Part shown: in pieces, positions 752-63,121 of the stretch | Layout of the letters: every line of letters starts with the position of its first letter | Position numbering within the stretch: position 1 is the first letter of the stretch | Translations under genes and position numbers: made by a program | Source of the DNA: Dudresnaya verticillata | Taxonomy: Eukaryota | Assembly: GCA_977862235.1 (NCBI GenBank) | Contig: OZ374559.1 | Coordinates: 1,922,001-1,986,000 of the forward strand | Direction of reading: 5' to 3' | Length of the DNA: 64,000 bases | The notes under the pieces: generated by a model | Seen by the model: the letters and a program-made list of their open reading frames with translations, nothing else | Databases searched by the model: none | What the model was told of the DNA's origin: nothing

Positions 752-759
752 TATATAAA
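752..759 (+). promoter_or_regulatory. TATA box of the Cys-rich peptide gene (recurs at +8963 intervals)
   Basis: TATATAAA 115 nt upstream of CACCATG; AATAAA at 1326-1331 after the stop. Confidence 0.6.
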
Positions 760-866
760 GCAACGACGCATCCCAGTTTGTGGGATTCATTCATCAGACA
801 CGCAACACTCAGTTGCACCTGAATACAACATCAATTCAGAAAAGCTTTCCAAGTCCACCCCACACC

Positions 867-5723: not shown

Positions 5724-5884
5724 ATATTGTATCTACAATATCGAAAGGAATTGCTTGCTTTCAGGATCAGACATGCCTGAGACTTAACTACCTCTCAGAT
5801 GACATGGAAGGTACATGAGAGGGGCGTCGTTAATGTAGATATCGACTCTGGTCTGGTGTGGCTTGTTATATATCTTGTAAAACT

Positions 5885-6304
5885 TGAATAACTTGGCTTG
5901 AAGAGCTGTTCACTCATGGCTGAACCGCTACTATTTGTTTTCTGTTTACGTTCAAGCACTACCGCTCAAGCTATTTGATTTACTGTTTATCGTTCAAGCA
6001 GTTGAGCAGTTACGTACTAGATATGTTGTTACGATTATTCCAGCAGTCCACGACTACGGTCTGATAGAACTAGCTGTTTTGTTACGTTTATGTTACGTCT
6101 AGCACTGCAGTTGAATTCATGCTACAGACCATGTTTTAGGGCAAACTGTGGTCTATTTATACTGACCTTCTCGTGGTCTGCAACAGGCATAGCTATCGAA
6201 CCACAACAATACTTACCAACTTATCAGCACCCATTCATCCCTTTCTGCATCTCGTTCCGTTTGGTCAGCATTCCCTTCCTCAATGTGCCCCTTTTCCTTC
6301 ATCA
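5885..6304. mobile_element. Solo-LTR-like element, copy B, with 6-bp target-site duplication (also 14848-15267, 23811-24230)
   Basis: TGA...TCA termini flanked by AAAACT at 5879-5884 and 6305-6310; absent from the paralogous flank near 32838. Confidence 0.7.
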
Positions 6305-7741: not shown

Positions 7742-7837
7742 CATATACTGTTGTGGTATGCGTATCGCTGTGTCGGAATGCAGCCCCAAGTAGATGGCAG
7801 CACGACACAGCGATGCGCATACCACAACTTGTATATG
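7742..7837. repeat. Long inverted repeat/hairpin (also 16705-16800, 25668-25763)
   Basis: 7750-7775 pairs with 7803-7828 (25/26 Watson-Crick plus one G:U on +); 7742-7748 pairs with 7831-7837. Confidence 0.85.
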
Positions 7838-9829: not shown

Positions 9830-10204
9830 ATGAAGATTACCGCTATGCTCTGCATCTGCCTAGCATTCGCAGCTCTACATGCATCAAATGGACGATTTAT
9901 TTCCGGTGACCAGCAGACAGAAGCCGTCAAGGTCAAGAAAAATATGCTCTTCACTCAAGGCGAGAACGCTGCAGAGATCCCAGCCTTTCCTTCTGAGCAA
10001 CGTGATGGCCGCTTCAATGCCATTACTGTTCGCCAGGGCTATTATAGTACCGCTCCTCGACCACCGCCTCCCCCTCCGGCGGCGTGCCCGTGCAGATGCA
10101 CGACGCATACAAATGCAGTTCAACAGTGCAGAAGGTTCTCTGAACGAAGGTGCTGGCTGCAGCCACAGAAATGTAGTGGAGATCGGGTCATGTGCTGTTG
10201 CTAA
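9830..10204 (+). CDS. Secreted Cys-rich prepropeptide (copy 2, His variant)
   Basis: Same as 867-1241 except TAT>CAT at 10106. Confidence 0.85.
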   Translation: MKITAMLCICLAFAALHASNGRFISGDQQTEAVKVKKNMLFTQGENAAEIPAFPSEQRDGRFNAITVRQGYYSTAPRPPPPPPAACPCRCTTHTNAVQQCRRFSERRCWLQPQKCSGDRVMCCC

Positions 10205-37484: not shown

Positions 37485-38324
37485 ATGGCTTCTCTCTCGG
37501 GCTCTTTCGTGGCGGCGCTAGTCCTCCTTACTGCGGTTGCGCAGACATTTGCAATTGACTGCAGTGACCCAGAATCGCGTAACGCTGTTCAGTGTCGCAA
37601 CTCGTACCTAGACGGGGGCTCGGGGAACGACGTGTACCGTCTGTCGTCTGGCAGCAGCCGGAAGGTGTTCATCCGGGACTCGGGCGGGTACGACACGCTG
37701 ATAATCGCTGGGAGCGTGATATCCAAGCCGACGCGCATCGGCGACTCGCTGCGCATCAACCAAGACGGGCGGCCGATCACGATCGTGGACCACTATGGCT
37801 CGGGGCGGATGGAGAAGATCGAGTACGACATTAACATCGCGCCGCCGTCAGGGTCGTCTGACGACAACGACGCGTTCGTGCTGGCCAAAAAGGTCGACCC
37901 GCAGATTCTGGAGGGCTTCACCATGCGCGTGGACGGGAGCTTCACGGCGCGCAACGGGGACGTTACTGCTGTCGGGCAGTACCGCAACATTGGCGGAGGC
38001 GTGCACACGGCGGCTGTCAACCTGTACGAGGGCGGTAGCAAGATTGGCGACATCAACGGCAGGGCGGACATGAACTATGGGACTGTTACGTACACGCTGA
38101 AATCGGATAAGGGGTCGCTTGTGTTCGAGGGGAGGGCGGCCATGTATGGCACGAACATGCTTGCGGAGTATCGCGCCACCATGCTTGACGGCGATGGAAG
38201 GGATATGAACGATGATGATGATGACGACGACCGCGACGACAACGACCCGTTTGGGAACGGACCCGCTACTGGGCCCGGCGATGGGTGGGGCGACGGCCCT
38301 GGGGGGCGCGACGGCGCTGTGTAA
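37485..38324 (+). CDS. Secreted protein with RTX/haemolysin-type Ca-binding-related domain, 279 aa (paralog 2)
   Basis: Same architecture as paralog 1; YLDGGSGNDVY; identical final GPGDGWGDGPGGRDGAV. Confidence 0.85.
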   Translation: MASLSGSFVAALVLLTAVAQTFAIDCSDPESRNAVQCRNSYLDGGSGNDVYRLSSGSSRKVFIRDSGGYDTLIIAGSVISKPTRIGDSLRINQDGRPITIVDHYGSGRMEKIEYDINIAPPSGSSDDNDAFVLAKKVDPQILEGFTMRVDGSFTARNGDVTAVGQYRNIGGGVHTAAVNLYEGGSKIGDINGRADMNYGTVTYTLKSDKGSLVFEGRAAMYGTNMLAEYRATMLDGDGRDMNDDDDDDDRDDNDPFGNGPATGPGDGWGDGPGGRDGAV

Positions 38325-38854
38325 AGGGTGTGTCTTGGTGCAGAGACTAAGTCGTAGTTTGAGAACGTGCTTTTGCCGTAGAGAAAGGAAGCTTTGCATC
38401 TCTTCGTCAGCCAACTCGCTCAAAGAAAGCCGCCGCGTATCCTCTGTCTTACGATGAGCCGACTCCGCTCCATTGCATTGCTGCGCGCTCAACCTTTTCC
38501 GATTCCACACCTTTGCGCAAAAGAGCGACGGCAGCGCTGCGCGCCCGCCCCGCCCGCTGCCATCCGCAGTCGCGCGGCCTTCGCGATGCGTCCCGCAGCC
38601 ACCGCCCCGCGCCCACCGCGCCGTCGTCGACGACAACCGCGCCGCGCCGTTCGCGACAGCTGCCCTCGCCGCCAATTCCAAGTCTGCACGGCCGCCGCCG
38701 GCGCCTGCTCGAATTCAACGCGCGCCGCGCGCCCCCCGCGCGCCGCTTAACCGCGCGCGCTTCCTCCCGCCAGCTCGGCCCCGACCAGCCCCCGCCGGCG
38801 TCGAAGCCACCCGTCGCCGCCTTCCCCGCCGTCGCCGCCTTCCCCATCGCCGCC

Positions 38855-40405
38855 ATGCGCGCCGCCCGCCGCATCGCGCCGCTCGTGCGCGCCGCCGTGC
38901 TGCTGCAGCTGCTTCCGCGCTTGTCGCGCGCCGCGCCGGGCGCGGCGCACGCGGTGCGCGCGTCGAGCTCGCGCTTCGACCAGCCGTGGCGCGCGCCGCC
39001 GCGCGTGCACATGCCGTCGCTGGCGGAGTCGCGCCACCGCGTGCTGTACTCGCCGGTGCGCGTGGCGGTGTCGGACGGGCTGGGGCACGGGCTGGCTACG
39101 ATGAACGCCGACGTGTCCACGGCCATTCGCCTGGGCGTCACGTACACGCACCGCGTCGCCAAGTACGGCTCGCTCGTCCCGGCCCCGGCGCTGCTCGCGT
39201 CGCTGTCCGAGCGCGAGACCCGGGAGCACGTGGCTGGCCTCTCCGCGGAGGCCGGTGCTGTCGAGGGCTTCTTCGCGTGGGGCGTCGGCGAGGTCCCCCG
39301 CGAGGCTGTGCAGGAGGCGGTTTGTCCCGACGTTGACAAGCGCGTCTTGGCGTGCAAGCTGTGCCCGCTGGGGCGTGTCAAGAATGGCTCTGCGAATGCC
39401 ATGCTCAAGTTGACGCAAGTTGTTGAGGTGCCCGAGGAGTTGTCGTACCGCTGGGTGTACCGCGCCACCGCCGCCGTGAATCGCACGTTGGACGCCTTTT
39501 TGCGCAAGCACTCGCAGCCGGGCACCGTGTTCCAGATGCCGAAAGTTCGCTGCGACAAGTCGCCCGCCTACTCCAAGTTCAGCCCGGAGAGCCGCTCGTT
39601 TTTCTTCCACAAGTACTGGGACGCGCACCAGGCGCGGCCTCGTCGCGGCCCGCACCACCCGGCCGCGATGCGGCTGTACCGCTCGTCGTGGGTTGGCACG
39701 CTGCGCATCCCGGGCGTGCCTCCGCGCGCAAAACTGGTGCGGCTGCGCGAGCACGAGCTGACCATCGCCGTGCACGCACGACGCGGGGACTTTTTCCGTG
39801 CCGGGCGGCCCATGGTGTCCATCGCGGCGTTTGCGCGCGTCGTGAGAAAGGTCGTGCACGAGGTGCGGCGTCAGAACGGGACGTTTGCGCGCATGCCCGT
39901 GGCCATCAATGTGTACAGCGAGGGCCTGCCCAAGAAGGGGCTCAACCACAAGGTCGGACACGACGTGACGCGGCTCACACGCGAGTTTCGAGATCCCGAT
40001 GGCCGCGTGCTGGACGTGGCCGCGGTGACGCGGGAGTTTCGCGAAGCTGGCCGCGACAAGTTTGGGAACGTGTACGCGAACGGGCTCAAGGTGGCGCTGC
40101 GTGTTTCGGAGGACACTCTGTTGTGCTTGCACGAGATGATCGCGGCCGATGTGTTTGTTGGAAGCGCGTCGGGGATGAGCCAGCACCTGGTGGGGAGTCT
40201 CTCGCGCGGCGCTATGCAGATTTTGCCAAAGCGGTATGAGCGGCCGCATGAGTGGCATGGGCATGTGGAGTTTGACCAGACGACGGGGGAGCTCGCTCCG
40301 GAAGAGTTGGTGCTTATGAGCAACTACTGGCGGGAGTTTGAGAAGGCGAATGCGGGTTCTGCGCAAAGGGCTTTGGAGACCTTTCGACGGTCGAAGCAAC
40401 TGTGA
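38855..40405 (+). CDS. Fucosyltransferase-like glycosyltransferase (GT11/GT23/NodZ-type motifs), 516 aa
   Basis: GCCATG start; hydrophobic N-terminus; DGLGHG, IAVHARRGDF, VYSEG, MIAADVFVGSASGMS; strong GC3 bias. Confidence 0.75.
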   Translation: MRAARRIAPLVRAAVLLQLLPRLSRAAPGAAHAVRASSSRFDQPWRAPPRVHMPSLAESRHRVLYSPVRVAVSDGLGHGLATMNADVSTAIRLGVTYTHRVAKYGSLVPAPALLASLSERETREHVAGLSAEAGAVEGFFAWGVGEVPREAVQEAVCPDVDKRVLACKLCPLGRVKNGSANAMLKLTQVVEVPEELSYRWVYRATAAVNRTLDAFLRKHSQPGTVFQMPKVRCDKSPAYSKFSPESRSFFFHKYWDAHQARPRRGPHHPAAMRLYRSSWVGTLRIPGVPPRAKLVRLREHELTIAVHARRGDFFRAGRPMVSIAAFARVVRKVVHEVRRQNGTFARMPVAINVYSEGLPKKGLNHKVGHDVTRLTREFRDPDGRVLDVAAVTREFREAGRDKFGNVYANGLKVALRVSEDTLLCLHEMIAADVFVGSASGMSQHLVGSLSRGAMQILPKRYERPHEWHGHVEFDQTTGELAPEELVLMSNYWREFEKANAGSAQRALETFRRSKQL

Positions 40406-40760
40406 AGTCGTGGGCGTAGGGGAAAGGGAGTGGCGAGTGTGCGCGGCTGGAGCTGCTGCTGCCGGGGATACGGAAAAGACGCCCCGACCCGCCTGTGCGT
40501 TGTTAGGCTTTGGCATTCCTCGGCGATTGCAAGTGCATCGCGCCGGCAACGGATGCACTGCGCTTGTTGTTTAGTTGGTGAGATAATCGCCAACTTGTCA
40601 GGTATTTAGACCACAGACAGACAGCTGCATGATTGCAGCAGCCATGTGCTCAGCACGGTGGGTGGGAGCAGACTCTCGCTACCGACTCGCGCTCCAAAAC
40701 GCCACGGCGGGGCAGAGAACACGCCCAAACACATACACACAAACACACACACGCCAAACT

Positions 40761-40963
40761 TGCTGCTGCTGCTGCTGCTGCTGCTGCTTTACCAAAGCGA
40801 TAGTCGCAGCTCGAGTCTCGTGGCCGGCTTGTTTGCAGGTATTAGAGAGGGAGAGGGAGAGGGAGAGAGAGAGAGAGAGAGAAACTCCAGTTATCAGCTT
40901 GCTCGAACAATGTCTATCCACCCACACGCCGCACTAGCTAAGAAGAAGAAGAAGAAGAAGAAA
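40761..40963. repeat. Microsatellite cluster (CTG)n, (GA/GAGAGG)n, (AAG)n between convergent genes
   Basis: Direct reading at 40761-40787, 40843-40882 and 40940-40963. Confidence 0.9.
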
Positions 40964-41028
40964 AGAGTAGCGTGAGAGATAGAGACAGACAGCATATGGT
41001 TGCAACAGTACAAACACACCGCGAGCCA

Positions 41029-43043
41029 TCACACCGTGCTAACGAGCCAGCGCAACCAGCTACGTTCCCGCAGCACGCACTCTCTCCGTGCCACCTCGGC
41101 AGCGCAAACCTCTCCATGATTCGCGGCGTGCATGGTAACGCCGAGAAAGTCATGCGCAAACACATCGCTCCCGCACCGCCCTTTGAACCCGACCGGCTCA
41201 TCCAGCCGCAACGTGCATGGCCCGACCTCCTCGCACAGCTCTTGCATGAACACCTCGCGCCCATGCCATCTCATCACGTGGAAACTCGTCGCGCACAGCT
41301 CGCTCCCCACGGTGCCATTCTGCCATTGCAAGCACAGCATCTCCACACGCCGCGGCGACATCCATCGGCGCGGGTGCCACTGCACTCTCAGCCCATGCTG
41401 TTGCTTGACCAGATCGACAAAGTCCATGCCCGACAGGCGACTCGACGTGCCCACGCAGGCAGCCTGGCCGCCGTCGCCGCCGTCGGAGCGTCCGGGGCTC
41501 GGCGCCGGGCTGGCCGGGGCCGAAGTCGACGGCGAAGGGGAGGGCGACGGGGCGACGGGGCGCGCCGCGGTCGTGAGCAACAGCTGCGGGTACGCGGCCT
41601 GCGGCGACGACGGCAGGCCCGAGTCTGTGCCGACGGTGTACACAACGTCGCCGTCGACGGCCATTGCGGCGGGGTCCCAGCGCTCGCGCAGCTCGCTCTG
41701 CACGATGGAGACGACGCGGTGGCGCGGCGTGACGACGAGCAGGGCCGGGCGGCCGTTGGAGAAGGAGCGAAACTTTTGCGTGTACGCGTCATCCGAGCGG
41801 TTGAGCAGCTCGGCGGAGTGCAGCAGCAGCAGAAGGCCGGGGCCTGCGGAGGACGGCGCGACCACGGCGGCGGCGCGCACGTCGGTGCGGGCCGTGCGCG
41901 TGTACACAACGTCCTGCTCAATGGTGCGCGCGAGCACGGCGGGCAGGTCGGGCGCGAGCGGCCACGCGGCCGGGGCCAGCGCCGGCAGCGCGTGGTGGCG
42001 CACGACGAGCTGCTCGCGGTTGTTGGTGCGCGAGACGTACGCGGCGTACACGCCGGCGTCGGACGCGGCTAGCGACAGCGACGTTTGCAGGTGGCGCGGC
42101 AGATCGACCGGCGCTGTGAGCGCGGCCAGCGTGGACGGGTGCAGCGCAAACAGCGTGGGCGTGAACGAGTGCACAAAGGCCGACACGGTCTGGCGGCGCG
42201 CCGCGACGTACACGGCGTGGCGCGACGCGTCCACGGCCCAGAAGCGGTCCTCCACGAGCGCGGGCGGCGCGGCGGCGGGGTCCGACGGGGTCGGCGGCGG
42301 CGGCAGCGCGAGTGCGGCGACGGTGACCAGGTCGGACGCGCGCGCGCGCGCCAGCACCAGGCCGGCCGTGCGCGGCGGCGCGGCCGCGAAGGCCGGGTGC
42401 TCTGGCGCGGCGCGCAGCACCAGCAGCAGGTGGTCGCCGTCGGCGGCGGCGAAGCGCGCCGCGAGGTAGGCGCCCGCCACGCGCGCGGGCGCGGCGCGGC
42501 GCGCGGCGCCGTCCGCGGCCGAGTACGCGGCGAGGTGGGCCTCGGGCGCGTCCGGCGCCGATGCGGACACGGCCGACGTGGCCAGGAAGAGCGTGGGGCG
42601 CGGCGCGGCGTCCGCGGCCAGCGCGACGCGCGTGTCGCGCGCGGGCAGCCACGCCGCGCGCACGGCCCACAGCGGCGCGGCGGAGGCGTTGGACGCGGCG
42701 GCGGCGGCGGCGGCGGCGGGCGCGGCGACGGCGGCGAGGAAGGCGGCCGACGCGGCGGACGGCGGGCGCGCGGCGAGCAGCGGCGAGTCGGACACGCGCG
42801 GCGGCGCGGCGCCGCCCGGCGTGGTGACCACGCCGGCGAGGTAGAGCACGCGGCCGCGCGCGACGACGGCGTGCAGCGACGACGCGGCCGGCGGCGGGAA
42901 CAGCGCGGCCAGGGCGTTTGTGGCGAACGGCGGGGCGGCGGCGGCGGCGGCGCGCGGCGCGCGCGCGGTTGGCACGGCCGCGGACGGGCGCGCGAGGAGG
43001 AGGAGGAGGGCGGCGAGGACGGCGACGGCGACGGCGGATGTCA

Positions 43044-43044
<1 letters not shown>
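41029..43044 (-). CDS. Secreted protein, 671 aa: Ala-rich N-terminal region, Pro/Ser linker, Cys-rich Hint-like C-terminal domain
   Basis: GCCATG start; signal MTSAVAVAVLAALLLLLARPSAA; PSPSPSPS linker; ACVGTSSRL...LCATSFH. Confidence 0.75.
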
Positions 43045-43082
<38 letters not shown>

Positions 43083-44732
43083 GCGGCGAGGCGGCGTGGC
43101 GGCGGCGGCGTGTGCGCAGGCGGCGGCGGCGCTGCAGACGCGCGCGCGGGCGCGGCTCCTTAACCGCGCGCGCGCGGCGGCGGCGGCGGCGGCGGGGAGC
43201 CGCGGCATTGCGTGGCGGCGGCGGCGATGTTTTGGCGGCGGCGGGGCGGGAGGGCGCGGTGCGGGAGGGCGGCGGGCGGTGACCGGCGCGGCGGGCGGGC
43301 GCGGCGGGCGGGCGCGTTGCGGCGGGGCGCGCCGCGGCGGGAGCGGCGGGGCTGCTCGCGCACACGTGTGCACGCGGCCACGCGGCCACGCGGCCACGCG
43401 GCCACGCGCACACGCGCACGCGTGTCCACGTGGCGCGCGGCGTGACGCGCCCGTGACGCGGCGCTGTAACCTTTTTGCACAGACGCGCGCGGCGGCTTCG
43501 GAAGGTAATTCGAGTACGAGCGCACTCGCGCGGCGCGCGGCGAGAGAGACTTTGCGCGGAAGTCGTCATACAGCGCGGCTGTCAACAGCGCGTGCTTGGG
43601 ACGTTGTCTCTCTCCACGCGCTGAACCGCAGCCGCCGGGGCCTCTCCCTCTCCCTCTCTCTTTGCGCGGCACGCGCTTCTCCCTTACTACCACAGCGCCA
43701 CCGCCGCGCCAGCGGCTCCGTCGCGCGCGCCTGCGCCGGGATTATACGCCGGCCAGCAGGCGGCGAGCGCCAGCCTTGCAGCGCAGAGAAACGTCGGCGG
43801 AAGCCTGGCGCGCGGCGGCGGCGCTGGCGCGGTGGTGGCAGCCGCGCCGCCACTGCGCAGCCGTGTGACGCACGCACAGCCGGCGAACGCGGCACTCGGT
43901 CGCGCGTGCGCGCATCTCGCTTGCAAGCTTGGAAGCACGCGGCGCGGCGCAGCGAGAACATTCCCTTGCCCGACCGGCATTGATCCACTGCATCCACTCC
44001 GTCCGCGCACCCGAGCCCTGTCACGCTGGGGAGCGAGCGAGCGAGCGAGCGGGCGGGCGCGCGAGTGGGCGGGCGACGGGGGGAGGGAGGGAGCCGCTGA
44101 GAAAGCCTTTGAAGCACCGCGAGACGGAGACCATGCAACGCTGCAAGCTGTAGGCGCGCGTGCCTGCGTGCCTGCGTGCCTGCGTGCCTGCCGTGTCTCA
44201 CGCCCCTGCGTCTCACATCGTCTTTGAATCTTTCAAGTTGCACACACACACACACACAACTCAATATAAAGCCCTGTCGGAACTTGAACAACACGTGACA
44301 CACCGCACCGCCCGCACCACCCCCTCGGTCCTCGGTGCTCTTGTAGTAAGGTCACACACACGCACTTACGCAGACATATATATCCCGTCGACGACAAACC
44401 GACCGCCTCTAATAATCCCACTGTTTCATACTTCCTGCTGTCGATCAATCATCGCACACAACTGCTTCAACCATACTTTGTGCACTGTTATACGCAATAT
44501 CTCACCCAAACACACAATCTCGCTCACCCCTACCATTACCCCCCGACACCGACACCGACACCGCCACCTTTTTTTCCATTTCCCTATAAAAACCTCCCTC
44601 CGAGCCCCTCGTCCCCTCACCCCATCACCACCACCACCTCCACCAAAGGCTTCACCTCAATTGCCCCAGCTTCAACGACAACAACAACAAAAAAAAACCA
44701 AAACCCTTTGCTCACTCTCACACCAAAGCACC

Positions 44733-47700
44733 ATGCCGGTCTGCTCCACCCGCCCCGTTCTGGGCGACAAGGCCCCGATCCGCCAGATGCAGGCCTTTCT
44801 CAACAAGGCCGGCCCCTACTCCATCCCGGAGGACGGCGTCTTCGGCCCCAACACCGACAACACCGTCAAGGACTGGCAGAAGAAGAACGGCCTGATCGTC
44901 GACGGCAAGGTCGCCAACCAGACCTGGCCCACGCTGTGCGACGCGGCATGCAAGCTGCGCCCCACCCTGGCCCACGCCTCGCCCAACAAGAAATCCGTCG
45001 CAGAGATGCAGACCCTGCTCAACAAGGCCGGCGGGTACTCCATGCCGGCCGACGGAGACTTTGGCAACAACACCGTCGCCAAGGTCAAGGACTGGCAGCG
45101 CCGCAATGGCCTTGCCGTCGACGGCGTCGTCGCCGCGCAAACCTGGCCCACGCTTTGTGAGTGCAGGGCTTGCAAGGTCCGTCCGAGACTGGTCCGCGGT
45201 TCCAACGACAAGGTTGCCGTCCTGCAGATGCAGGCTCTGCTCAACAACATTGGCGGCTACCGCATTCCTGAGGATGGCGATTTCGGTGGAAACACTCAAA
45301 ACACCGTCAAGGACTGGCAGGCCAAGAACAAGCTCATCGTCGATGGAGTCGTCGCCGGTCAGACCTGGCCTACCCTGTGTGACACCGTTTGCAAAACCAA
45401 GCCCAGGCTGTCTAAAGGGTACGATGCCTACGGTCAGGTCCGCCAGACCCAAGTCTTGCTCAATGCTGCAGGAGGCTACACTCTTTCGTTGGATGGCGAT
45501 TTTGGCAACCAGACAGACAGAACCGTCAGGGACTGGCAGACCAAGAATGGGCTCATCGTGGACGGAATTGTCGGAAACCAGACGTGGCCTACTCTTTGTG
45601 ACCCGATCTGCAAGTCGCGCCCTTCTTTGTCGAAAGGATCACCCAACAAGCGTGGAGTCAAGGAGATGCAGACCCTATTGAACGACAAGGGTGGCTACAA
45701 CATGCCAGTAGACGGAGACTTTGGCAACAACACTGACGGCAAAGTCAGGGATTGGCAGAAGAGGAATGGCCTTGCCGTTGACGGTGTTGTTGGCGCTCAA
45801 ACTTGGCCGACCCTGTGCGATGAATCTCAAGCTTGCAAGACCCGTCCGAGACTGCAAAAAGGATCTGCTGACAAGAGAGCCGTTCTCGAGATGCAAGCAG
45901 CGCTGAACAAGGCTGGTGGCTACAGCATTCCCGAGGACGGTTTGTTCGGAGGCAATACTGAGAATACCGTCAAGGACTGGCAGAACAAGAATGGTCGCGT
46001 AGTGGATGGCATTGTTGGAGGGCAGACATGGCCCACTCTGTGCGACTGCGTTTGTGAGGTCCGTCCGGTTTTGGGAGACAAGGCTCTCATTAAGGAGATG
46101 CAGGCCTTGTTGAACAAGGCTGGTGGGTATCATATCCCCGAGGATGGTATCTATGGAAGCAACACAGAGAAGACCGTCAAGGACTGGCAAACGAAGAGTG
46201 GCATTTTCGCAAGTGGCATCGTTGGGCCTGCCACATGGGATACTCTTTGCACCGACAGTCTCATTACAGATGCTGTCAAGGGGCTAGACTCTGAGATGGA
46301 TGCGCTAAAGCCCAAGCTGGAGCGCTTCAGGAATCTCGACTTCTTTATTCTCGACAACTCGATCCGCGAGTGCACTGTTGGCCAGCTCCGTAGCCATACC
46401 ATTGAGAACAAGAAGAAGATATACGCCGAGAGCAAAAAGTGTCACATGCATAGCATGATTGTCGCTTCATTTGCGCAACTGCACCGCGTTGACGACGAGT
46501 TTTGCCAGTGGCTCAAGGACTCTGGCGAGGATTTCTCCAAGCTCTTCTCCTTTTCCGAGGTGACTGAGGGCGTCAAGGACGGGCGGTTTATTACCGACGA
46601 GGTCCCAATCTCGCTTAAAAAGAACAAGACGTTCGGCCTGTACAATACTTTCTTTGAGGTCGACCTAGCAGACAGCAGAGTCGAGTGGGGAACCAAATGG
46701 TCCGTGCATGATATGTGCAAGTTGATAGAGAAATGGATGGACTGGGTGTTCGACAATATTCACAAGGACGCACGCATCCTCATCAACTTTCGAGATTTGC
46801 CCGCTGTCATGGTCCAGGCCCCGGAACGTATCCTAGCAGTCGTCGAGTTTCTCTCCAAAATGCCAGAGGATCGGCGTATGTTTGCCCTTGCGTATGAGGA
46901 CCCTATGGGTGAGAGCCTGCCGGCAGAGATGGCGGCCTGGACGAGGGCAATTCGCAACGTTATGACCGCTTCTGGTTGGAATGGGCGTTTGTTGAACCAC
47001 ATTCATGAAAAGTGGGAGTTCCAAACCTCAGCAACAATGGAGTGTTTGGCCGCAGGAGGTGACGGTGTTTGGGCAGGTATGTGCGTAGAAGGCGCAGCTA
47101 TGGGGCACGCTAGTTCGACGGTAACGCTGCTGAATTTGGTGCGTCTCGGCAATCAGAAGGTACTCAAGACGTATAATTGCACAGGGTTCCGCAATTCTGC
47201 TATCGAGGTGACCAAGTTGACGACGACAAAGAAGCCACACCCCAAACAATGTGTGTATGGAGAACGTGCGCTAGATCTGGTGTTCGGATTCCTCGGAGTT
47301 GGTGACTTCAACCTCGGAGATTTCTTCGGGGAACGCACGGAAAATAGAATGACGACTCTGGCTACACCGCAAATGATCGTCGATCGGTTGACGTTCCTGT
47401 TCGGTGCCGACCCGCAGTTTACGCTCGAAATGGGGGAGAAGATGAAGGTGAAGATGTTGGATGATCTCAACTCGACGCCTCCCAGGAAGGAGGAATATCA
47501 GAGCGCCATGGGTTTGGCAGTGTTACTCGATCGAACCGGCGGGAAGTTAACTGGGAAGATGAGTGACGCAATTGCAGCTGTGGAGGATCATCAGGAGAGT
47601 CACAAGCGAATTATTGCCGAGATTCGAGAGTTGTGGGACGAGTGGGATATGAAGGAGACGCACAAGAAGGATGACGCGTTGCAGTTTGACTCGTTCTACA

Positions 47701-47963
47701 ATGCATTCTTGTCGCCATACTTTGGGTGCTACCGCTGCGCAGATACGAAGCAGGCTATGAGTGCAATCGACATGGATGATGATCACTGCGTAGACTGGAA
47801 TGAGTTCCTAGTGTACATCAAGTGGGCGCTCGCGGAGAAGCCCAACGTTGCCTATTCGGATGAGGTGCTTGAGATGGCGATTCAGGAGGGATTGATCCCC
47901 GCGATGCGCGACGAGAAGATCAAGAATCAGGAGTCTCACAGCGGGTTCCGCCACCTGCCGTAG
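44733..47963 (+). CDS. 7x peptidoglycan-binding domain (PGBD-like) + DRE-TIM metallolyase-like barrel + EF-hand, 1076 aa
   Basis: CACCATG start; seven roughly 72-aa repeats (MQxLLN...DGxFGxNT...VKDWQ...GLxVDGxVxxQTW); FILDNSIRE, HIH and GAAMG; EF loop DMDDDHCVDWNE. Confidence 0.92.
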   Translation: MPVCSTRPVLGDKAPIRQMQAFLNKAGPYSIPEDGVFGPNTDNTVKDWQKKNGLIVDGKVANQTWPTLCDAACKLRPTLAHASPNKKSVAEMQTLLNKAGGYSMPADGDFGNNTVAKVKDWQRRNGLAVDGVVAAQTWPTLCECRACKVRPRLVRGSNDKVAVLQMQALLNNIGGYRIPEDGDFGGNTQNTVKDWQAKNKLIVDGVVAGQTWPTLCDTVCKTKPRLSKGYDAYGQVRQTQVLLNAAGGYTLSLDGDFGNQTDRTVRDWQTKNGLIVDGIVGNQTWPTLCDPICKSRPSLSKGSPNKRGVKEMQTLLNDKGGYNMPVDGDFGNNTDGKVRDWQKRNGLAVDGVVGAQTWPTLCDESQACKTRPRLQKGSADKRAVLEMQAALNKAGGYSIPEDGLFGGNTENTVKDWQNKNGRVVDGIVGGQTWPTLCDCVCEVRPVLGDKALIKEMQALLNKAGGYHIPEDGIYGSNTEKTVKDWQTKSGIFASGIVGPATWDTLCTDSLITDAVKGLDSEMDALKPKLERFRNLDFFILDNSIRECTVGQLRSHTIENKKKIYAESKKCHMHSMIVASFAQLHRVDDEFCQWLKDSGEDFSKLFSFSEVTEGVKDGRFITDEVPISLKKNKTFGLYNTFFEVDLADSRVEWGTKWSVHDMCKLIEKWMDWVFDNIHKDARILINFRDLPAVMVQAPERILAVVEFLSKMPEDRRMFALAYEDPMGESLPAEMAAWTRAIRNVMTASGWNGRLLNHIHEKWEFQTSATMECLAAGGDGVWAGMCVEGAAMGHASSTVTLLNLVRLGNQKVLKTYNCTGFRNSAIEVTKLTTTKKPHPKQCVYGERALDLVFGFLGVGDFNLGDFFGERTENRMTTLATPQMIVDRLTFLFGADPQFTLEMGEKMKVKMLDDLNSTPPRKEEYQSAMGLAVLLDRTGGKLTGKMSDAIAAVEDHQESHKRIIAEIRELWDEWDMKETHKKDDALQFDSFYNAFLSPYFGCYRCADTKQAMSAIDMDDDHCVDWNEFLVYIKWALAEKPNVAYSDEVLEMAIQEGLIPAMRDEKIKNQESHSGFRHLP

Positions 47964-48919: not shown

Positions 48920-51900
48920 GCTGTGATTGGGGCGGTTGTGTGAGGCGCTGTTCGAGTGGAGGGGCGCTATCGCAATTGGGTGCGGTGCGGGTGTGATTGC
49001 CGAGATATTTTCTTTCGGCGTTTGGGGCACTTGTGGCTATCGGAGAATTTCTTTGAGGCATTATCGACATTGAAGGAGAACATAATGTTGATGCTAACCT
49101 CCGCAATAAACAATGTATCGAACAGATCCGGCCTCATCTTGATGTACACAATTTAAACAATTCACCGACTCAGAGTCTGAGGAGTCACACAGCTGTGGAT
49201 ATATCGAGTACTGTATAGTCTCACAATTAGCTCCGCAGCAGCTACTCATAAAGGGTTTAGATAAATCTGTAACGTGGTTTATTACCAGTTGTTTCTTATG
49301 AATATGTTCTCCGCAGCTTGGTTTCGGGTTTTTGTTGACAGTATATCAGCGCTCCCATCAAGAAGACATAACGTGTTCTCCAGATGCAAATCGTTGCAGA
49401 GACCGACTACTCAAGTACTTTCGATATCTTACAAAATGGCTACACTCTACGCTGCAAACTATCAGACATCTCACGATACACACAGTATAGCGTGACACAA
49501 GGGGTGTTCCAAGTGCACCATTTTTGACCGCAGGCCCAGCACGAAATAACATGCTGGTGATACGGAGATGCGATATTGTCACAAGCACACTTCCGGTCAG
49601 ACCGTGCCAAGCCGAGCCCAAGCCCCTGCATCTACCATCTGTAGACTACTCCCCAGCTTCGCACGTGCACACACCCGCGAGACTCGATCCCACGACCTCC
49701 ATGGTGGACCAAGCAAAAAGAAACCATTTAGCTATTGCCGCTTCAGTGTGGCTTTGCTTGGTGTAGCGCTGTGATGCTCCCTACTTAAGATCCTATTTCA
49801 GTAGGTATCTACACATCCACGTAAGTACTAATGTTACTAATGTATTGCACCATTCACACCACTGCATTCAAACACGAATGCCCTTTCTCGATATTCTCTG
49901 CTGCAACCCCAGTCCGATATTTATTAACATCTACTGTTGCTTCTCACACCAATTGACACTCAAACTACCGATACTGCACCCAATCCACATCATTACTTGA
50001 TCCGCTCACTTGCCTCTCCAGAAGCCTTCTCAAGTACTCATAGTCTGGACGAGTTGAAAACGTCAACCCCTGGAGATATTCAAAGTAAGAATTCATCCAA
50101 GGCAACTTGACGCGAATACGATGCAATGACCTCTGCTTCAACACAACAACTTGATTCAGTACTTCCGGATCAACACTGGCCGAATACTGGTCCCAAGCAA
50201 GCTCCCCGCAAACAAGTTCCCACAACACATACCCAAGAGACTCCAGATCGCTTGCTCGCGACTGGTGTTCCATTCTGTGCGCTGCCATGGATGCATAACG
50301 GGGTGTGGTCACGATGGACCCCACCTTTCCGGCGGGCGGATTATCCCAAGACGCATATCTTCGGGACAACCCGAAATCTGACAAATACACCCGCCCTGAG
50401 CCTCTGGAGTCGGTCAGAAAGTTTCCGGGCTTCACATCGCGATGCACAAACCCATTGTTGTGAAACCTCTCCAGGGCCGTCAGCGCTCTGACTGCAAACC
50501 GTACCACACCGGTGAGCGTAAAACGAAAATGGAACTTCTGAAACTGCTCTTCCACCGAAGGACCCAAACAATTCATCACGATTACCCCATACTCGTTGTT
50601 GAGCTGCAGGGCTTGTTCTGGCGTGGGCATGAAAGCATCGTTGGGATCTTGGTTTGGAAATGCACTGTACACCTGCGTTTCAGTCCGGAAGCCATGCTCC
50701 CTTCCTTCGACGAGGAGTCCTATCTTCAAAGCCACAATGTGGTTGTCGTCGTATGTATCTTCTGCCTGATACACTGCTCCATACCCACCCTCTCCAAGCA
50801 ATTTCGTCACCCGCCAGCGGTTAACGATGATGAAACTGGGGGAAGGGAAACGCTTATCCCTTGGTCGTTTCGGTGGCGAGGGCAAGCGACCCTGAAGCTC
50901 TTGTAGTTCGGCTTTGGTCTTTTCGTACCAGTGTACAATGATGTCTCGCTGGTCTGACAGCAATCTGACCTCGCCTTGGAGGTTTATGATGGTATGGTCC
51001 CCCTCGGTCTGGCTGGACTGCAGAGCATTGACCCTGTTCCTCAGCAAAGTTGTATCAGAATAGAATCGCTCTGTGATACCGTCTCGCTCGGTTTTCAGAG
51101 CCGATACCATGTTCTCCATGGTTTGAACCGTTAGACTATGCTCGAGGAAGTTGTTAGTCAGGGACACATTTTTGTCTTCGAGGGAATGACTTTCCTCCAA
51201 AAGTTCCTCATAGAGGAGAGACAAATCCGCATTTCTCCTGCTCAACTCAGTGTTCTGAGCTTCGAGCTTAGAAATGCGATCTTCAGCGTGTTTTTTCTCC
51301 CCCAACAAGTAGCTTATCTCATGGGATTGGCCATGGAGGCCTTTTTCCTGCCTGGGAACCTCATCACTCAGAGTAATGACCTCGGATATCGTAGCAGTCT
51401 GCCCATGGATCAGCGCCTTATTCTTCTCATTAGACTCGTTGAGCTTCTCCTTGAGTTCACTGCATGTATTTGGCAGGTTTGCTCCATGGCCGCCCAAACC
51501 GTGCGCGCTCTCTCGACCTACTCCTGAGGCACCTGATGACCTCGGTATTTCTAACGTCAAGTGCCTTCGAGGCATCCCACTCCTTCGTCAGTTGGGACAC
51601 AATGCCCTTCAAAGCATTGATCTCACCGCGAAGCCTGGTGTTGGTAGATTTCTCGAATGTGACTGACTCCTTGGTAACAAGTGCTTCAGACTCCTTCTGA
51701 ATGATCTTGTTCTTAAGAGAGGTGGTTTCTTCAGCCTGACTCTTGCAAATATCGACGTACGTCGGACGTCGACGCCAGGTAGGGAGCTGGATGCGCATGG
51801 TAATGACTTTTACAGGCTGTTAGAATTGCTGATTTATGCTGTGTTTTTAGTGGCAGATGTTGTACTTGCGTGAGAGTGAGAGCACTTCTGGGGGTAGGAG

Positions 51901-55221: not shown

Positions 55222-58200
55222 GTGACCTACAGCAGAAAATTTACACTATCCACCGGGAATACCAGTGCCTTGGGCCAACATGGACTCACATGCCCGAGTT
55301 GGAAACGTCCAATGAATCGCTCGTTAGAGGCATATGCGATTTTGATATGCGTTGAGGAGGGCCAACTGTACAAGCCGGGAAGGAATTGGAAACATCCAAT
55401 GAATCGCTCTCGAGGGCTATCTTCTTACAGTTGGGTTAAGAGCGCCAATAATTCCTAGCCGGGAAAATGGAGAAGTACAGCCATATTAAGACGCATGCAA
55501 GCTGCTGGGTGTTGCGTTCGCGGCAGTGTGATGATAACTCCACTCTGGACATATGCACTGTACAGCACGTCATTGTACACCTAAAAATTCGGACATCGAT
55601 GCCGAAATGTTCGGTGTTGTGTACGGTGTACGTTTTTGCCGGCTCGACGAAGTGCCGGGCTACATCACTGGCGCGAAAACGGGATCTACTTGAGCCACAA
55701 CTTCCCCCAGGGAACAGGCAGCCCACCCTTACCTACCCGCACTGTTTTCCATCGATACCTTTCCACCTCTTCCCCCGGACTCCTACCCCCAGAAGTGCTC
55801 TCACTCTCACGCAAGTACAACATCTGCCACTAAAAGCACAGCATAAAGCAGCAATCGTAACAGCCTGTAAAAGCCATTACCATGCGCATCCAACTCCCTA
55901 CCTGGCGTCGACGTCCGACGTACGTCGATGTTTGCAAGAGTCAGGCTGAAGAAATCACCTCTCTTAAGAACAAGATCATTCAGAAGGAGTCTGAAGCACT
56001 TGTTACCAAGGAGTCAGTCACAGTCGAGAAATCTACCAACACCAAGCTTCGCGGTGAGATCAATGCTTTGACGGGACTTGTGTCCCAACTGACGAAGGAG
56101 CGGGATGCCTCGAAGGCACTTGACGTTAGAAATACCGAGGTCATCAGGTGCCTCAGGAGTAGGTCGAGCCGAGCAGAGAGGAGCGCGCACGGTTTGGGTG
56201 GCCATGTAGCAAGTCTGTCAAATACATGCCGTGAACTCAAGGAGAAGCTCAACAAATCTGACAAAAAGAATAAGGTGCTGAGCCATGAGAAGACTGCTAC
56301 GATATCCGAGGTCATTACGCTGAGTGATGAGGTTGCCAGGCTGGAAAAAGGCCTCCATGGCCAATCCCATGAGATAAGCTACTTGTTGGGGGAGAAAAAA
56401 CACGCTGAAGATCGCATTTCTAAGCTCGAAGCTCAGAACACTGAGTTGAGCAGGAGAAATGCGGATTTGTCTCTCCTCTATGAGGAACTTTTGGAGGAAA
56501 GTCATTCCCTCGAAGACAAAAATGTGTCCCTGACTAACAACTTCCTCGAGCATAGTCTAACGGTTCAAACCATGGAGAACATGGTATCGGCTCTGAAAAC
56601 CGAGCGAGACGGTATCACAGAGCGATTCTATTCTGATACAACTTTGCTGAGGAACAGGGTCAATGCTCTGCAGTCCAGCCAGACCGAGGGGGACCATACC
56701 ATCATAAACCTCCAAGGCGAGGTCAGATTGCTGTCAGACCAGCGAGACATCATTGTACACTGGTACGAAAAGACCAAAGCCGAACTACAAGAGCTTCAGG
56801 GTCGCTTGCCCTCGCCACCGAAACGACCAAGGGATAAGCGTTTCCCTTCCCCCAGTTTCATCATCGTTAACCGCTGGCGGGTGACGAAACTGCTTGGAGA
56901 GGGTGGGTATGGAGCAGTGTATCAGGCAGAAGATACATACGACAACAACCGCATTGTGGCTTTGAAGATAGAACTCCTCGTCGAAGGAAGGGAACATGGC
57001 TTCCGGACTGAAATGCAGGTGTACAGTGCATTTCCAAACCAAGATCCCAACGATGCTTTCATGCCCACGCCAGAACAAGCCCTGCAGCTCAACAATGAGT
57101 ATGGGGTAATCGTGATGAATTGTTTGGGTCCTTCGGTGGAAGAGCAGTTTCAGAAGTTCCATTTTCGTTTTACGCTCACCGGTGTGGTACGGTTTGCAGT
57201 CAGAGCGCTGACGGCCCTGGAGAGGTTTCACAACAATGGGTTTGTGCATCGCGATGTGAAGCCCGGAAACTTTCTGACCGACTCCAGAGGCTCAGGGCGG
57301 GTGTATTTGTCAGATTTCGGGTTGTCCCGAAGATATGCGTCTTGGGATAATCCGCCCGCCGGAAAGGTGGGGTCCATCGTGACCACACCCCGTTATGCAT
57401 CCATGGCAGCGCACAGAATGGAACACCAGTCGCGAGCAAGCGATCTGGAGTCTCTTGGGTATGTGTTGTGGGAACTTGTTTGCGGGGAGCTTGCTTGGGA
57501 CCAGTATTCGGCCAGTGTTGATCCGGAAGTACTGAATCAAGTTGTTGTGTTGAAGCAGAGGTCATTGCATCGTATTCGCGTCAAGTTGCCTTGGATGAAT
57601 TCTTACTTTGAATATCTCCAGGGGTTGACGTTTTCAACTCGTCCAGACTATGAGTACTTGAGAAGGCTTCTGGAGAGGCAAGTGAGCGGATCAAGTAATG
57701 ATGTGGATTGGGTGCAGTATCGGTAGTTTGAGTGTCAATTGGTGTGAGAAGCAACAGTAGATGTTAATAAATATCGGACTGGGGTTGCAGCAGAGAATAT
57801 CGAGAAAGGGCATTCGTGTTTGAATGCAGTGGTGTGAATGGTGCAATACATTAGTAACATTAGTACTTACGTGGATGTGTAGATACCTACTGAAATAGGA
57901 TCTTAAGTAGGGAGCATCACAGCGCTACACCAAGCAAAGCCACACTGAAGCGGCAATAGCTAAATGGTTTCTTTTTGCTTGGTCCACCATGGAGGTCGTG
58001 GGATCGAGTCTCGCGGGTGTGTGCACGTGCGAAGCTGGGGAGTAGTCTACAGATGGTAGATGCAGGGGCTTGGGCTCGGCTTGGCACGGTCTGAACGGAA
58101 GTGTGCTTGTGACAATATCACATTTCCTTATCAATGAGGACAGCTGTGTCTGCAGCAGAAACACTAGCATGTTATTTCGTGCTGGACCTGCGGTCAAAAA

Positions 58201-60487: not shown

Positions 60488-63121
60488 ATGCCTGGAGACG
60501 ACGACTCCTCCTCGCCCTCGGAAGACGTCCGCAGGCGCGTGCAGCGCCAGCTGCAGCTCACGGCGGACAACGAGCTCGCGCGCCGGCTAGCCGCGGACGA
60601 GACCCGTCTGATGGGAGAACGCTTGGATGACCACTTGGTCGCCCTGCGCCTCGCGGCAGAGTTCATTACCGAGGTGGACAGCCCGCCATCGCCGTCCGCT
60701 ACCGCCGCCGAGACAAACGTCCCTGCCTTCCCGCGGCCGGAACAGGCCGCTACTCTGTGCCTGCAGCACCCCGCCGCATCGCTCCAACATCCCTACGGTG
60801 CACGTTATATCCCCACGTCGGGTTCGCACCATGCCCACCCATCCCACACACACCACACACACCACGCTCCCTCATTTCCCTGCCACTACGCCCACCCATT
60901 GCCCGTGCACAATCATTCAGTCCCGCCCCACCACCATCCTGCTGGGCAGCCCACGCCCTACCATTCGCATTCTGGACCGCTCGGGCAATGCTGCCCGCCT
61001 GCTCAAGCCCATGTGCGCGTGGTCCCATCGTCAACGCAACATGCAGCCATGCCTGCGGGGCACTCGTTTGAGGATCCAGTAGCCAGAACGGCGTTCTACC
61101 CCCCGTTCACGCAGCATACGGTCGACCCTGGCAACTCCTCGTACCAGCACCGCCAAACGACATCTCCTGGGCAGGCCTTTCTGTCTCCTAACCATCCCAA
61201 CTACGCTAGTTTCGCCCAATCTTGCGCTGCTGGCTCGGAACACCACGACGATGCCGCTGTGTCGACCCAACAGCCCATGCACCGCGTCACCGGGACCTAT
61301 GCGCCAGATCCCACTTTGTTTACCCAACAACCTACTCACCAGTTCACCCCACAATATGCGCCAGATGGCACTTTGTCGACCCAACAACCCATGCACCGTT
61401 TCACCCCGATCCACACATCAGATGACACTGTGTCGACCCAACAACCCATTCACCACTTCACCCCAACATACGCGCCAGCACCAATTGCCCGTTGGCAGCA
61501 CTTCACACCAGACCACGCGCGGTTCACCGCCGGCGCTTCTTCAGATGATTCTTTCCCTGTGAATCCCCCGGTCGCCGTTCACGTATTAGCTGCCGGCCGT
61601 GGTGATCCTGCTCCAAGCCAGCTCGCAGCCGCATCGCCTACAAGGCTGATCTCTGTCATCCACCCATATTTCACCGCTGGTTGCGCTGTCGATGAAACAA
61701 AACATCATGGACACGCTCCTTCCCTTGGCTTGTCTGCCGCTGACAACCAGCTTGCTGATGTTCCCTCCACAGACCCCGTCGACCTCATTCACGTACAAGG
61801 CAGTTCTACGGCACCTGCAAAACCGGTTTCCGTCCCGCATCCACCCACGCACTCTACCGAGACTGCAGAACTGGTTGCACCCACCCATCAGGATCTCAGT
61901 ACAAAGCAGCTTTCGAGGCCCACAGAAAGAGCTGCAGAAGCAAAAAGGACAGTCGCCTGCTCTCCAAACGATGAAACTCCCAACAACGAATCGGGATACG
62001 GCTACAGTCGACTAGCAGCACTTGCTAGCTCTTTAGGACTACTGGGGATTGTTTCCAGATGGAATCAATCCCGAGCATCGTCTTCCACGCCAGACCAGAG
62101 CACAATTTCTTCCGGGGCATCCTCATCTGATCAGAAGGAGGCTGCTACAGGGTTATCCTCATTTCGTCAGCAGCCGCCCATTTCAGCTCCCAGCGCATCA
62201 GATGATCACGAACTAGGGGCCCGATTCGCAAAGGAGGATTGGGAAAGATATCCAGAAAGATATCAGGAGATTCTTGCAGACAAGGAATTTGCACAGCGTC
62301 TTTGGGAAGAAGACGTCGCCAAGCAACGTGACTTCGGTGAAGCACAGCAGCTTGCCCAGAGAGACCAGGACGAGGCGAAAGATGCTGTCGTCGCTTTAAC
62401 CATTGCGGCCAAGAACCTCGGATTGCAAGAGGATCTACTAGCTGTGTCCGATGAAACGCATGACTGCATGCTTTGTGCAGAGACTGTGGCGGGCACATCC
62501 GCGTTCAGGTCCAAGTCTTGTGAACATGTTTTCTGTACTATTTGCATTCGAAAACATATTAGGATTTCTGTTGAGGAAGGAAAGCTTCCAGTCAAGTGCC
62601 CGCATTGTCCTTCCGAATACAGCTTGCAGGAGTGCCTCGCACTCATGGCTGGAACTGGAGATCCGGAGCAAAAGCTGAACAAGATGATCATAGAGCGGGT
62701 GCATCACCAGCAGATGCATTTTTGTGCGAATCCGACATGCTCCCAGCCGTTTGACTATGCGCTCATTGGAGATGATGACGATGATGATGCTTGCAGAGCA
62801 GATTGCCCAATATGTCATACAAGGACTTGTGTCCGGTGCAAGGTCAAGTGGCACGAGGGACGCACCTGCAAGCAATACAAGGAAAACTTAGAGTTCGGTG
62901 AGCTGCGCAAGCTGGTGAAGAAGGAGAAATGGCAAATCTGTCCAGGCTGTGGCGAAGCAGTTGAGAGACCGCCAGATGGATGCAACTTTCTGATGTGCCG
63001 TTGTCGGACTGCATTCTGCTATAATTGCGGCGTTAAGTACTTGTCGACGAAGACCACAGCAAACAATTTGCATGGGCAGCCAGGTTGCAACTGCGGACTG
63101 TTCTCATACAAAAGTACGTAA
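60488..63121 (+). CDS. RBR-type (RING1-IBR-RING2) E3 ubiquitin ligase, 877 aa
   Basis: CMLC...CEHVFCTIC...CPHC; CANPTC...CPIC...CVRCKVKWHEGRTC; CPGC...GCNFLMCRCRTAFCYNC; MIU-like DxELAxxL motifs; CACCATG start. Confidence 0.93.
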   Translation: MPGDDDSSSPSEDVRRRVQRQLQLTADNELARRLAADETRLMGERLDDHLVALRLAAEFITEVDSPPSPSATAAETNVPAFPRPEQAATLCLQHPAASLQHPYGARYIPTSGSHHAHPSHTHHTHHAPSFPCHYAHPLPVHNHSVPPHHHPAGQPTPYHSHSGPLGQCCPPAQAHVRVVPSSTQHAAMPAGHSFEDPVARTAFYPPFTQHTVDPGNSSYQHRQTTSPGQAFLSPNHPNYASFAQSCAAGSEHHDDAAVSTQQPMHRVTGTYAPDPTLFTQQPTHQFTPQYAPDGTLSTQQPMHRFTPIHTSDDTVSTQQPIHHFTPTYAPAPIARWQHFTPDHARFTAGASSDDSFPVNPPVAVHVLAAGRGDPAPSQLAAASPTRLISVIHPYFTAGCAVDETKHHGHAPSLGLSAADNQLADVPSTDPVDLIHVQGSSTAPAKPVSVPHPPTHSTETAELVAPTHQDLSTKQLSRPTERAAEAKRTVACSPNDETPNNESGYGYSRLAALASSLGLLGIVSRWNQSRASSSTPDQSTISSGASSSDQKEAATGLSSFRQQPPISAPSASDDHELGARFAKEDWERYPERYQEILADKEFAQRLWEEDVAKQRDFGEAQQLAQRDQDEAKDAVVALTIAAKNLGLQEDLLAVSDETHDCMLCAETVAGTSAFRSKSCEHVFCTICIRKHIRISVEEGKLPVKCPHCPSEYSLQECLALMAGTGDPEQKLNKMIIERVHHQQMHFCANPTCSQPFDYALIGDDDDDDACRADCPICHTRTCVRCKVKWHEGRTCKQYKENLEFGELRKLVKKEKWQICPGCGEAVERPPDGCNFLMCRCRTAFCYNCGVKYLSTKTTANNLHGQPGCNCGLFSYKST
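61250..61477 (+). repeat. Coding minisatellite, 4 x 57 bp (19 aa)
   Basis: DxxxSTQQPxHxFTPxYAP-like units starting 61250, 61307, 61364 and 61421. Confidence 0.9.

Follow-up and report, generated by a model that had tools for sequence, protein, structure and literature searches.

Seven PG_binding_1 repeats fused to an ilborin-family module in a single gene of Dudresnaya verticillata

We find that one gene of the eukaryote Dudresnaya verticillata fuses seven PG_binding_1 repeats, that is, peptidoglycan-binding domains (PGBDs), to a complete ilborin-family module consisting of a DRE-TIM barrel and an EF-hand. The gene lies in a 64,000-nucleotide stretch of DNA, analysed here as a whole and referred to as the window (NCBI GenBank assembly GCA_977862235.1, contig OZ374559.1, positions 1,922,001 to 1,986,000 of the forward strand), and all positions below are counted from the first letter of the window. 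An open frame of 1076 codons, seven repeats that are significant in Pfam and similarity to ilborin-family proteins at E ≤1e-212 are together far beyond what chance would produce. Domain fusions are among the few handles on the ilborin family, and the fusion described here thus represents a testable lead to its function.

One gene with a repeat array and an ilborin-family module

The frame runs from an ATG at 44733 to a stop codon at 47961–47963 with no internal stop or frameshift (Table 1). The only Pfam family matched by the product is PG_binding_1 (PF01471), with 340.7 bits against a cut-off of 23 (E 5.7e-104) and in seven stretches, and a search of NCBIfam returned only PGBD-containing families, every one of them below its cut-off. 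By our own parsing the array is made up of seven repeats of 66–75 residues each, which fill residues 4–506 (44742–46250), and an independent DNA repeat search also found seven copies, at a spacing of 207–225 bases. An earlier reading of the letters alone, hereafter the original prediction, had placed seven tandem PGBD-like repeats at about 44742–46255, followed by DNSIRE, HIH and an EF-hand loop in a protein that lacks a signal peptide, and each of these elements was recovered in our analysis.

Table 1. Features of the fusion gene, with window positions, residue ranges and the basis of each assignment
Feature	Residues	Position	Strand	Basis
Complete coding frame, 1076 codons and stop	1–1076	44733..47963	+	Open-frame check, uninterrupted
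PGBD repeat 1 (Cys first, TLC last)	4–72	44742..44948	+	Pfam and parsing
PGBD repeat 2	73–146	44949..45170	+	Pfam and parsing
PGBD repeat 3	147–219	45171..45389	+	Parsing and search against solved structures
PGBD repeat 4	220–292	45390..45608	+	Pfam and parsing
PGBD repeat 5	293–367	45609..45833	+	Pfam and parsing
PGBD repeat 6	368–440	45834..46052	+	Pfam and parsing
PGBD repeat 7 (most divergent; last residue Cys506)	441–506	46053..46250	+	Pfam and parsing
Full-length ilborin-family module, 569 residues	508–1076	46254..47960	+	Homology search, alignment with stand-alone relatives
Predicted DRE-TIM barrel	about 536–834	46338..47234	+	AlphaFold2 model, VIA-align, Foldseek
DNSIRE, D-x-x-x-R-E signature (D541, R545, E546)	541–546	46353..46370	+	Motif search, alignment
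NHIHEKW with HxH metal-ligand pair (H756, H758; HIH 756–758)	755–761	46995..47015	+	Aligned to 3ble
Predicted EF-hand pair (hand 1 degenerate, hand 2 with canonical ligand pattern)	about 955–1035	47595..47837	+	Helix-loop-helix in AlphaFold2 model
EF-hand loop DMDDDHCVDWNE, 12 residues	1013–1024	47769..47804	+	Motif search and family alignment
TATA-like element ctataaaaacc (promoter role inferred)		44585..44595	+	About 140 bases 5′ of the start codon

Homology search and alignment with stand-alone relatives place the C-terminal module in the ilborin family, as a member of full length. A search with the module gave 562 matches at E ≤0.001, the best 120 of which were 54–69% identical to it over almost its entire length, with the best at 55–69% identity and 93–98% coverage, and a broader search gave 858 representative clusters at E ≤0.001, of which 161 reached E ≤1e-30. 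Ilborin B of Halisarca dujardinii is 57% identical to the module at 94% coverage (E 1e-212). In an alignment of 171 relatives, where a column was taken as conserved if a single residue occupied at least 95% of the rows, the module retains 72 of the 74 conserved columns, and the two departures are L to F and F to I. The original prediction had proposed separate phylogenies for the modules; for the enzyme module, a FastTree phylogeny of 173 rows places it within the ilborins, in a six-row clade with five stand-alone proteins (SH-like support 100), all five of which start directly with the enzyme module.

The ilborin family was named in sponges in 2022 (Borisenko et al., PMC8864356). That paper describes cytoplasmic proteins of 560–610 residues with an aldolase-type TIM barrel, one canonical EF-hand and no signal peptide, whose HHpred matches include homocitrate synthase and HMG-CoA lyase and in which Arg35, Glu36, His205 and His207 are conserved. 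It reports homologues from sponges, cnidarians, ctenophores, echinoderms, one flatworm, two cyanobacteria and a labyrinthulomycete. One ilborin is the major protein of sponge larval flagellated cells. According to PMC8864356, neither an activity nor Ca2+ binding had been measured for any ilborin.

The first residues of the enzyme module, DSLITDAV, align with the MSLV... start of the stand-alone relatives, which means that the array is set directly on the native enzyme N-terminus, with the single residue T507 as a linker and no leftover untranslated sequence at the joint. Both halves are under purifying selection, as seen from the conserved columns of the enzyme and from the substitution pattern among the repeats described below. 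The repeat half has a GC content at third codon positions (GC3) of 0.72 and the enzyme half one of 0.67, and codon use in the two halves is correlated at 0.50, inside the spread of the neighbouring genes. A recent bacterial origin of the repeat half was also considered on the grounds of composition, for which GC3 and the codon-use correlation proved uninformative either way.

These properties bear on whether the fusion is a working gene at all, rather than an assembly join, a recent and unexpressed accidental fusion or contaminating DNA. Some caution about the assembly is fair since the window contains four 100% identical tandem copies of an 8963-base unit and, beside the gene, a block of 64–79% GC, and the exact protein is absent from a collection of about 15 billion sequences. 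However, a frame free of stops and frameshifts over 1076 codons, a joint that falls exactly at the native enzyme N-terminus, the near-complete retention of the conserved enzyme residues and a GC3 that is similar across the halves all speak for a genuine gene. Furthermore, synonymous differences between the repeats approach saturation whereas the amino-acid sequence has stayed conserved, so the array is both old and selected. We therefore find it very improbable that the fusion is an artefact or a dead accident.

The fusion of such repeats to an ilborin looks new within the sets that we searched. PF01471 was found in none of 56 long ilborin homologues (591–1883 residues), and a Pfam scan of 34 long representatives returned no PG_binding_1. 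A hidden Markov model (HMM) of the seven window repeats found nothing in 304 ilborin relatives, nor in six-frame translations of 81 related loci (80 metagenome loci and one bacterial metagenome-assembled genome, MAG), for which the scan was limited to open segments of 35 residues or more and where 37 of the 80 metagenome loci had at most 700 bases upstream of the match. Among 120 repeat-array proteins, in turn, no ilborin module was present. As controls, the repeat HMM recovered 120 of 120 repeat-array proteins and all seven window repeats, and the ilborin HMM recovered 304 of 304 relatives. In the literature we found nothing that pairs PG_binding_1 with HMGL-like, and among the matches listed for PF01471 in eukaryotes no such fusion appears in the titles and the beginnings of the abstracts. 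The claim of the original prediction that no protein with this architecture has been described thus appears to hold for the fusion, which was met nowhere else in the sets searched, but not for its DRE-TIM and EF-hand half, which had been described as ilborin (PMC8864356).

Fold and motifs of the enzyme module

A structure model of the enzyme module was obtained with AlphaFold2 from a 25-row alignment of diverse relatives, with a predicted local distance difference test score (pLDDT) of 88.6 and a predicted template modelling score (pTM) of 0.80. The top Foldseek matches of the model in the PDB are homocitrate, methylthioalkylmalate, isopropylmalate and citramalate synthases (E 5.9e-11 to 4.5e-9). 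In VIA-align the best partner was citramalate synthase 3ble, with Z 31.6 and a root-mean-square deviation (rmsd) of 2.5 over 299 aligned residues, followed by homocitrate synthase (Z 29.7), HMG-CoA lyase (Z 26.7), 4-hydroxy-2-oxovalerate aldolase (Z 24.8) and carboxyltransferase domains (Z about 20–21). At the level of profiles, the ilborin family matches 3ble at E 5.3e-5 with its HxH aligned to the HgH of 3ble, and distant family members reach 36.5 bits in the Pfam family HMGL-like (PF00682) against a cut-off of 29, with several others at 20–34 bits.

Each of the residues D, N, R and E of DNSIRE is shared by at least 95% of the 171 relatives, and the HxH pair is conserved to the same degree. 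The predicted fold together with the D-x-x-x-R-E and HxH motifs supports membership of the DRE-TIM superfamily, in line with the original prediction. We name the active-site residues, and presume their roles, after isopropylmalate and homocitrate synthases. Two motifs of the condensing synthases, D-T-x-G and G-E-R-x-G, are changed when the family profile is aligned to 3ble: the threonine of D-T-x-G in 3ble (lpDTlG) stands opposite a proline in the family (fedptG; YEDPMG in the window protein), and the GERAG of 3ble stands opposite GAavG. Since both of these motifs are altered, we refrain from assigning the module to the condensing enzymes, and its exact reaction cannot be read off.

Towards the C-terminus, the loop DMDDDHCVDWNE is flanked by predicted helices and carries D, D, D, D and E at ligand positions 1, 3, 5, 9 and 12. 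Over its C-terminal 70–130 positions, the ilborin family profile also picks up calmodulins, troponin C and radial spoke protein 7 (E 8e-6 to 1e-3). Position 6 of the loop is His in the window protein and Gly in about nine out of ten of the 171 relatives.

A bacterial ilborin homologue, 48% identical, lies at 7941–9608 of a contig from a Verrucomicrobiales MAG; it was the sole genome-contig locus returned by a scan for a single peptide pattern, which is no measure of rarity. Its surroundings are those of an ordinary bacterial gene: the neighbours are a DnaG primase, NfeD, an adjacent formate-dehydrogenase-like gene and a TIR-ParA-like gene, and a TRAP-type DctP solute-binding protein is encoded 460 bases upstream; a single locus is too thin for functional inference. 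The open reading frame (ORF) of this homologue stops about 100 bases short of the end of the tblastn match and may be frameshifted or shortened.

The repeat array and its possible ligand

Compared pairwise (21 pairs), the repeats have a mean amino-acid identity of 0.61, and the mean proportion of nonsynonymous differences (pN) is 0.28 versus 0.66 for synonymous differences (pS), which indicates that the array is old and that each copy has been maintained by selection. Two DG..G..T motifs, which we take to be typical of the wall-binding PGBDs of the endolysin literature, are present in all seven repeats. Repeat 3 alone matched the solved structures 4xxt (E 9.7e-6), phiKZ endolysin gp144 (3bkh, E 1.2e-5) and 5tv7, the best hits spanning E 1e-5 to 1e-4, and the Streptomyces DD-carboxypeptidase 1lbu was matched only at E 0.42. 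The nearest PGBD arrays in a large protein collection are mostly bacterial and have GH18, GH25, NlpC/P60, CHAP and amidase as partner domains, and one is found in a 1369-residue protein of the protist Heterolobosea sp. BB2. Modelling of the array was of little help: a predicted fold of a repeat pair, for which six rows of repeats from the protein itself were aligned, has a pLDDT of 53.4 and is too poor for use, and a complex prediction of repeats 6–7 with the enzyme module, run without supplied alignments, scored 0.02 against a mark of 0.34 and counts neither way.

It is possible, but in our judgement unlikely, that the fusion is real while its repeats do not bind peptidoglycan and instead serve in protein-protein contacts or regulation, or have a different polymer as their ligand, for example a wall polysaccharide of the organism itself. 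The existence of a PGBD array in a protist fits this explanation. In one version of it the array would be a latency domain comparable to a metalloproteinase prodomain, with a cysteine that reaches the metal of the enzyme. Metalloproteinase prodomains with a cysteine switch likewise belong to PF01471, the ilborin module is predicted to be a metal enzyme by motif alignment and fold match, and cysteines are found at the ends of every repeat, with Cys506 only two residues before the enzyme module. On the other hand, the best matches of a single repeat are bacterial and phage wall-binding domains, and no metalloproteinase prodomain is among the 12 structure matches listed for it; the conservation of both DG..G..T motifs throughout the array also argues for wall binding. 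Moreover, the presence of seven copies, all kept by purifying selection, is easier to reconcile with avid binding to a polymer than with a latch that works one to one.

The cysteines themselves are the main unexplained feature of the array. Every repeat opens with a Cys (C-x-x-R/K-P) and closes with T-L-C, which gives 14 repeat-flanking cysteines that together with two extra ones make 16 in residues 1–506, and this pattern is absent in five repeat-array relatives that were inspected. The original prediction made no mention of these residues, which fit an oxidising compartment better than the cytosol. One explanation would be that the protein is exported, via a missed start exon or an unconventional route, and acts on bacterial walls outside the cell, the first and last Cys of each repeat forming a disulfide. 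Export would agree with the fact that most PGBD proteins are extracellular hydrolases. We nevertheless consider it improbable, as the 1076-residue product has neither a hydrophobic N-terminus nor a membrane segment (the highest 19-residue Kyte-Doolittle mean is 1.29), and the first repeat starts already at residue 4. The 1163 bases upstream of the gene (43570–44732, + strand) hold a single ATG, which opens a frame of 6 codons, and none lies between the TATA-like element and 44733. The five nearest relatives begin at the enzyme module, and the ilborins of sponges are reported to be cytoplasmic proteins that lack a signal peptide (PMC8864356). The same upstream stretch also contains long pyrimidine-rich and CA-repeat tracts.

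Further clues may be sought in the partners of other ilborins, which we took from automatic gene models. Eight clusters are fused to DM9; they form one clade, are eukaryotic, have 715–749 residues and are 56–61% identical to the window module. DM9 proteins are described as mannose-binding pattern-recognition receptors, at least one of which is reported to be cytosolic. Because the DM9 ilborins fall in a clade separate from that of the window protein, their fusion is independent, and with two independent fusions to carbohydrate-recognition modules glycan tethering is a reasonable recurring theme; the sequences thus suggest that such tethering recurs in the ilborin family. A second clade, of five clusters, is fused to Abhydrolase_2 (thioesterase-like), and further partners are extra EF-hands and, in single cases, GST, thioredoxin, a cyclic-nucleotide-binding domain, SnoaL, and rhamnosidase plus PAN. 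Among these, the partners related to thiols and thioesters may be a hint of acyl-CoA chemistry.

Taken together, we tentatively favour the explanation that the protein is a cytosolic ilborin enzyme which the seven-fold PGBD array tethers, through avidity, to peptidoglycan or a similar repeating polymer, and we regard this as a serious possibility that falls somewhat short of probable. Lacking both a signal peptide and a membrane segment, the protein would remain in the cytosol, as reported for the sponge ilborin. Since all seven repeats keep the PGBD consensus, they would likely bind muropeptide or glycan units, weakly one by one and strongly as an array. The barrel would hold a divalent metal via E546, H756 and H758, R545 would engage a substrate of the 2-oxo-acid type, and a carbon-carbon bond beside a carbonyl would be formed or cleaved, the nearest folds being those of enzymes that condense acetyl-CoA with 2-oxoacids. 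The C-terminal EF-hand would make activity or conformation responsive to Ca2+, and the net effect would be to concentrate the ilborin enzyme on bacterial wall material.

Several observations weigh against this explanation. As a single sequence the enzyme module matches no Pfam family at E ≤10 and only chance-level entries in the PDB (E 1.5), and the window protein has no match to HMGL-like or EF-hand in Pfam even at E ≤10; the enzyme and EF-hand assignments are made because of family profiles, motifs and the predicted fold. With its altered D-T-x-G and G-E-R-A-G motifs, the module may have a chemistry that differs from that of every characterised DRE-TIM enzyme, and the His at position 6 of the EF-hand loop may weaken the predicted Ca2+ binding. 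Cys-flanked repeats would be more in keeping with disulfide bonds in a secreted protein than with a cytosolic one. Identity between the array of the window protein and its nearest PGBD arrays is no more than 24–38%, and no orthologue with the identical fusion was found in the relatives searched. Finally, PF01471 also takes in the prodomains of matrix metalloproteinases, for which binding to peptidoglycan is not known.

A bolder proposal would take ilborins in general as cytosolic, Ca2+-gated enzymes whose product is the output of microbe recognition. The window protein would then be a new eukaryotic intracellular receptor for peptidoglycan, in which the PGBDs capture wall fragments, or invading or ingested bacteria, and activate or concentrate a DRE-TIM enzyme whose product, formed in place, is a small-molecule signal or an antimicrobial, and the DM9 ilborins would be its mannose-reading version. 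We consider this proposal distinctly unlikely.

The more modest idea of a tethered enzyme has consequences of its own. Ilborins have many homologues, which have been reported or seen in sponges, cnidarians, ctenophores, echinoderms, protists and a few bacteria, and for all of them the reaction and the ligand are unassigned. A PGBD fusion beside an independent fusion to a mannose lectin gives rise to the concrete idea that ilborins act on microbial glycans or in their vicinity. Should cytosolic peptidoglycan indeed be the ligand of the array, it would represent an unusual eukaryotic route of reading bacterial walls, in which the immediate output is an enzyme and not a signalling adaptor. Should the repeats have another ligand, the protein would still be a clean example of how a wall-binding module of bacterial type has been reused in a eukaryote.

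Surroundings in the window and comparison with known systems

The first 35852 positions of the window are occupied by the four tandem copies of the 8963-base unit, which start at 1, 8964, 17927 and 26890 and are identical over the compared stretches; each unit contains an internal duplication of about 2930 bases with 81–85% identity. We found no Rfam family in 1–10000, and no tRNA and no ORF of at least 250 residues in the array region. This array may be satellite-like, or it may reflect collapse or expansion in the assembly. The GC-rich block extends from 38000 to 44000, and the rest of the window has 42–60% GC. Within the block, and divergent to the fusion gene, lies an ORF (41029–43569, − strand) for an Ala/Pro/Arg-rich protein of 846 residues with a GC3 of 0.90, an internal signal-peptide-like stretch and no Pfam match. 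Downstream of the fusion gene are two inverted paralogous protein kinase genes with a coiled-coil N-terminal half (49965–51575, − strand, and 55882–57726, + strand; 97% identity over 512 residues) and a gene for an RBR-type (RING-IBR) E3 ubiquitin ligase of 877 residues (60488–63121, + strand), whose nearest atlas clusters are eukaryotic, with Streptophyta the commonest.

With the PG_binding_1 wall hydrolases, such as phiKZ gp144 (3BKH) and the bacterial hydrolases with several PGBDs, the window protein has PF01471 in common, and tandem arrays of similar length are found in bacteria. The arrays of these hydrolases differ in their partners, none of the 120 examined having a DRE-TIM domain, and the five inspected lack Cys at both ends of the repeats. 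The Claisen-condensing citramalate, homocitrate and 2-isopropylmalate synthases (3BLE, 2ZYF and 4OV9) are the best structural matches of the barrel, with Z 31.6–29.4 and rmsd 2.5–3.0 over about 300 residues for barrel-only entries, and they share with it the D-x-x-x-R-(E/D) motif and the HxH metal site. However, identity to these synthases is only 10–15%, and their regulatory domain is replaced by the EF-hand pair in the window protein.

The closest comparison is with the ilborins themselves. Halisarca dujardinii ilborins A–D (PMC8864356) have the same order of TIM barrel, helical region and single canonical EF-hand as the enzyme module, and the Arg/Glu pair and His-x-His are kept in both. These ilborins stand alone at about 560–610 residues, whereas the window protein has 1076 and carries 507 extra residues at its N-terminus. 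It further differs from them by the His in place of Gly at position 6 of the EF-hand loop, and the window gene is intron-less. The DM9-fused ilborins, finally, resemble the window protein in joining the same enzyme family to a carbohydrate-recognition module, but there the lectin is C-terminal and has a different fold.

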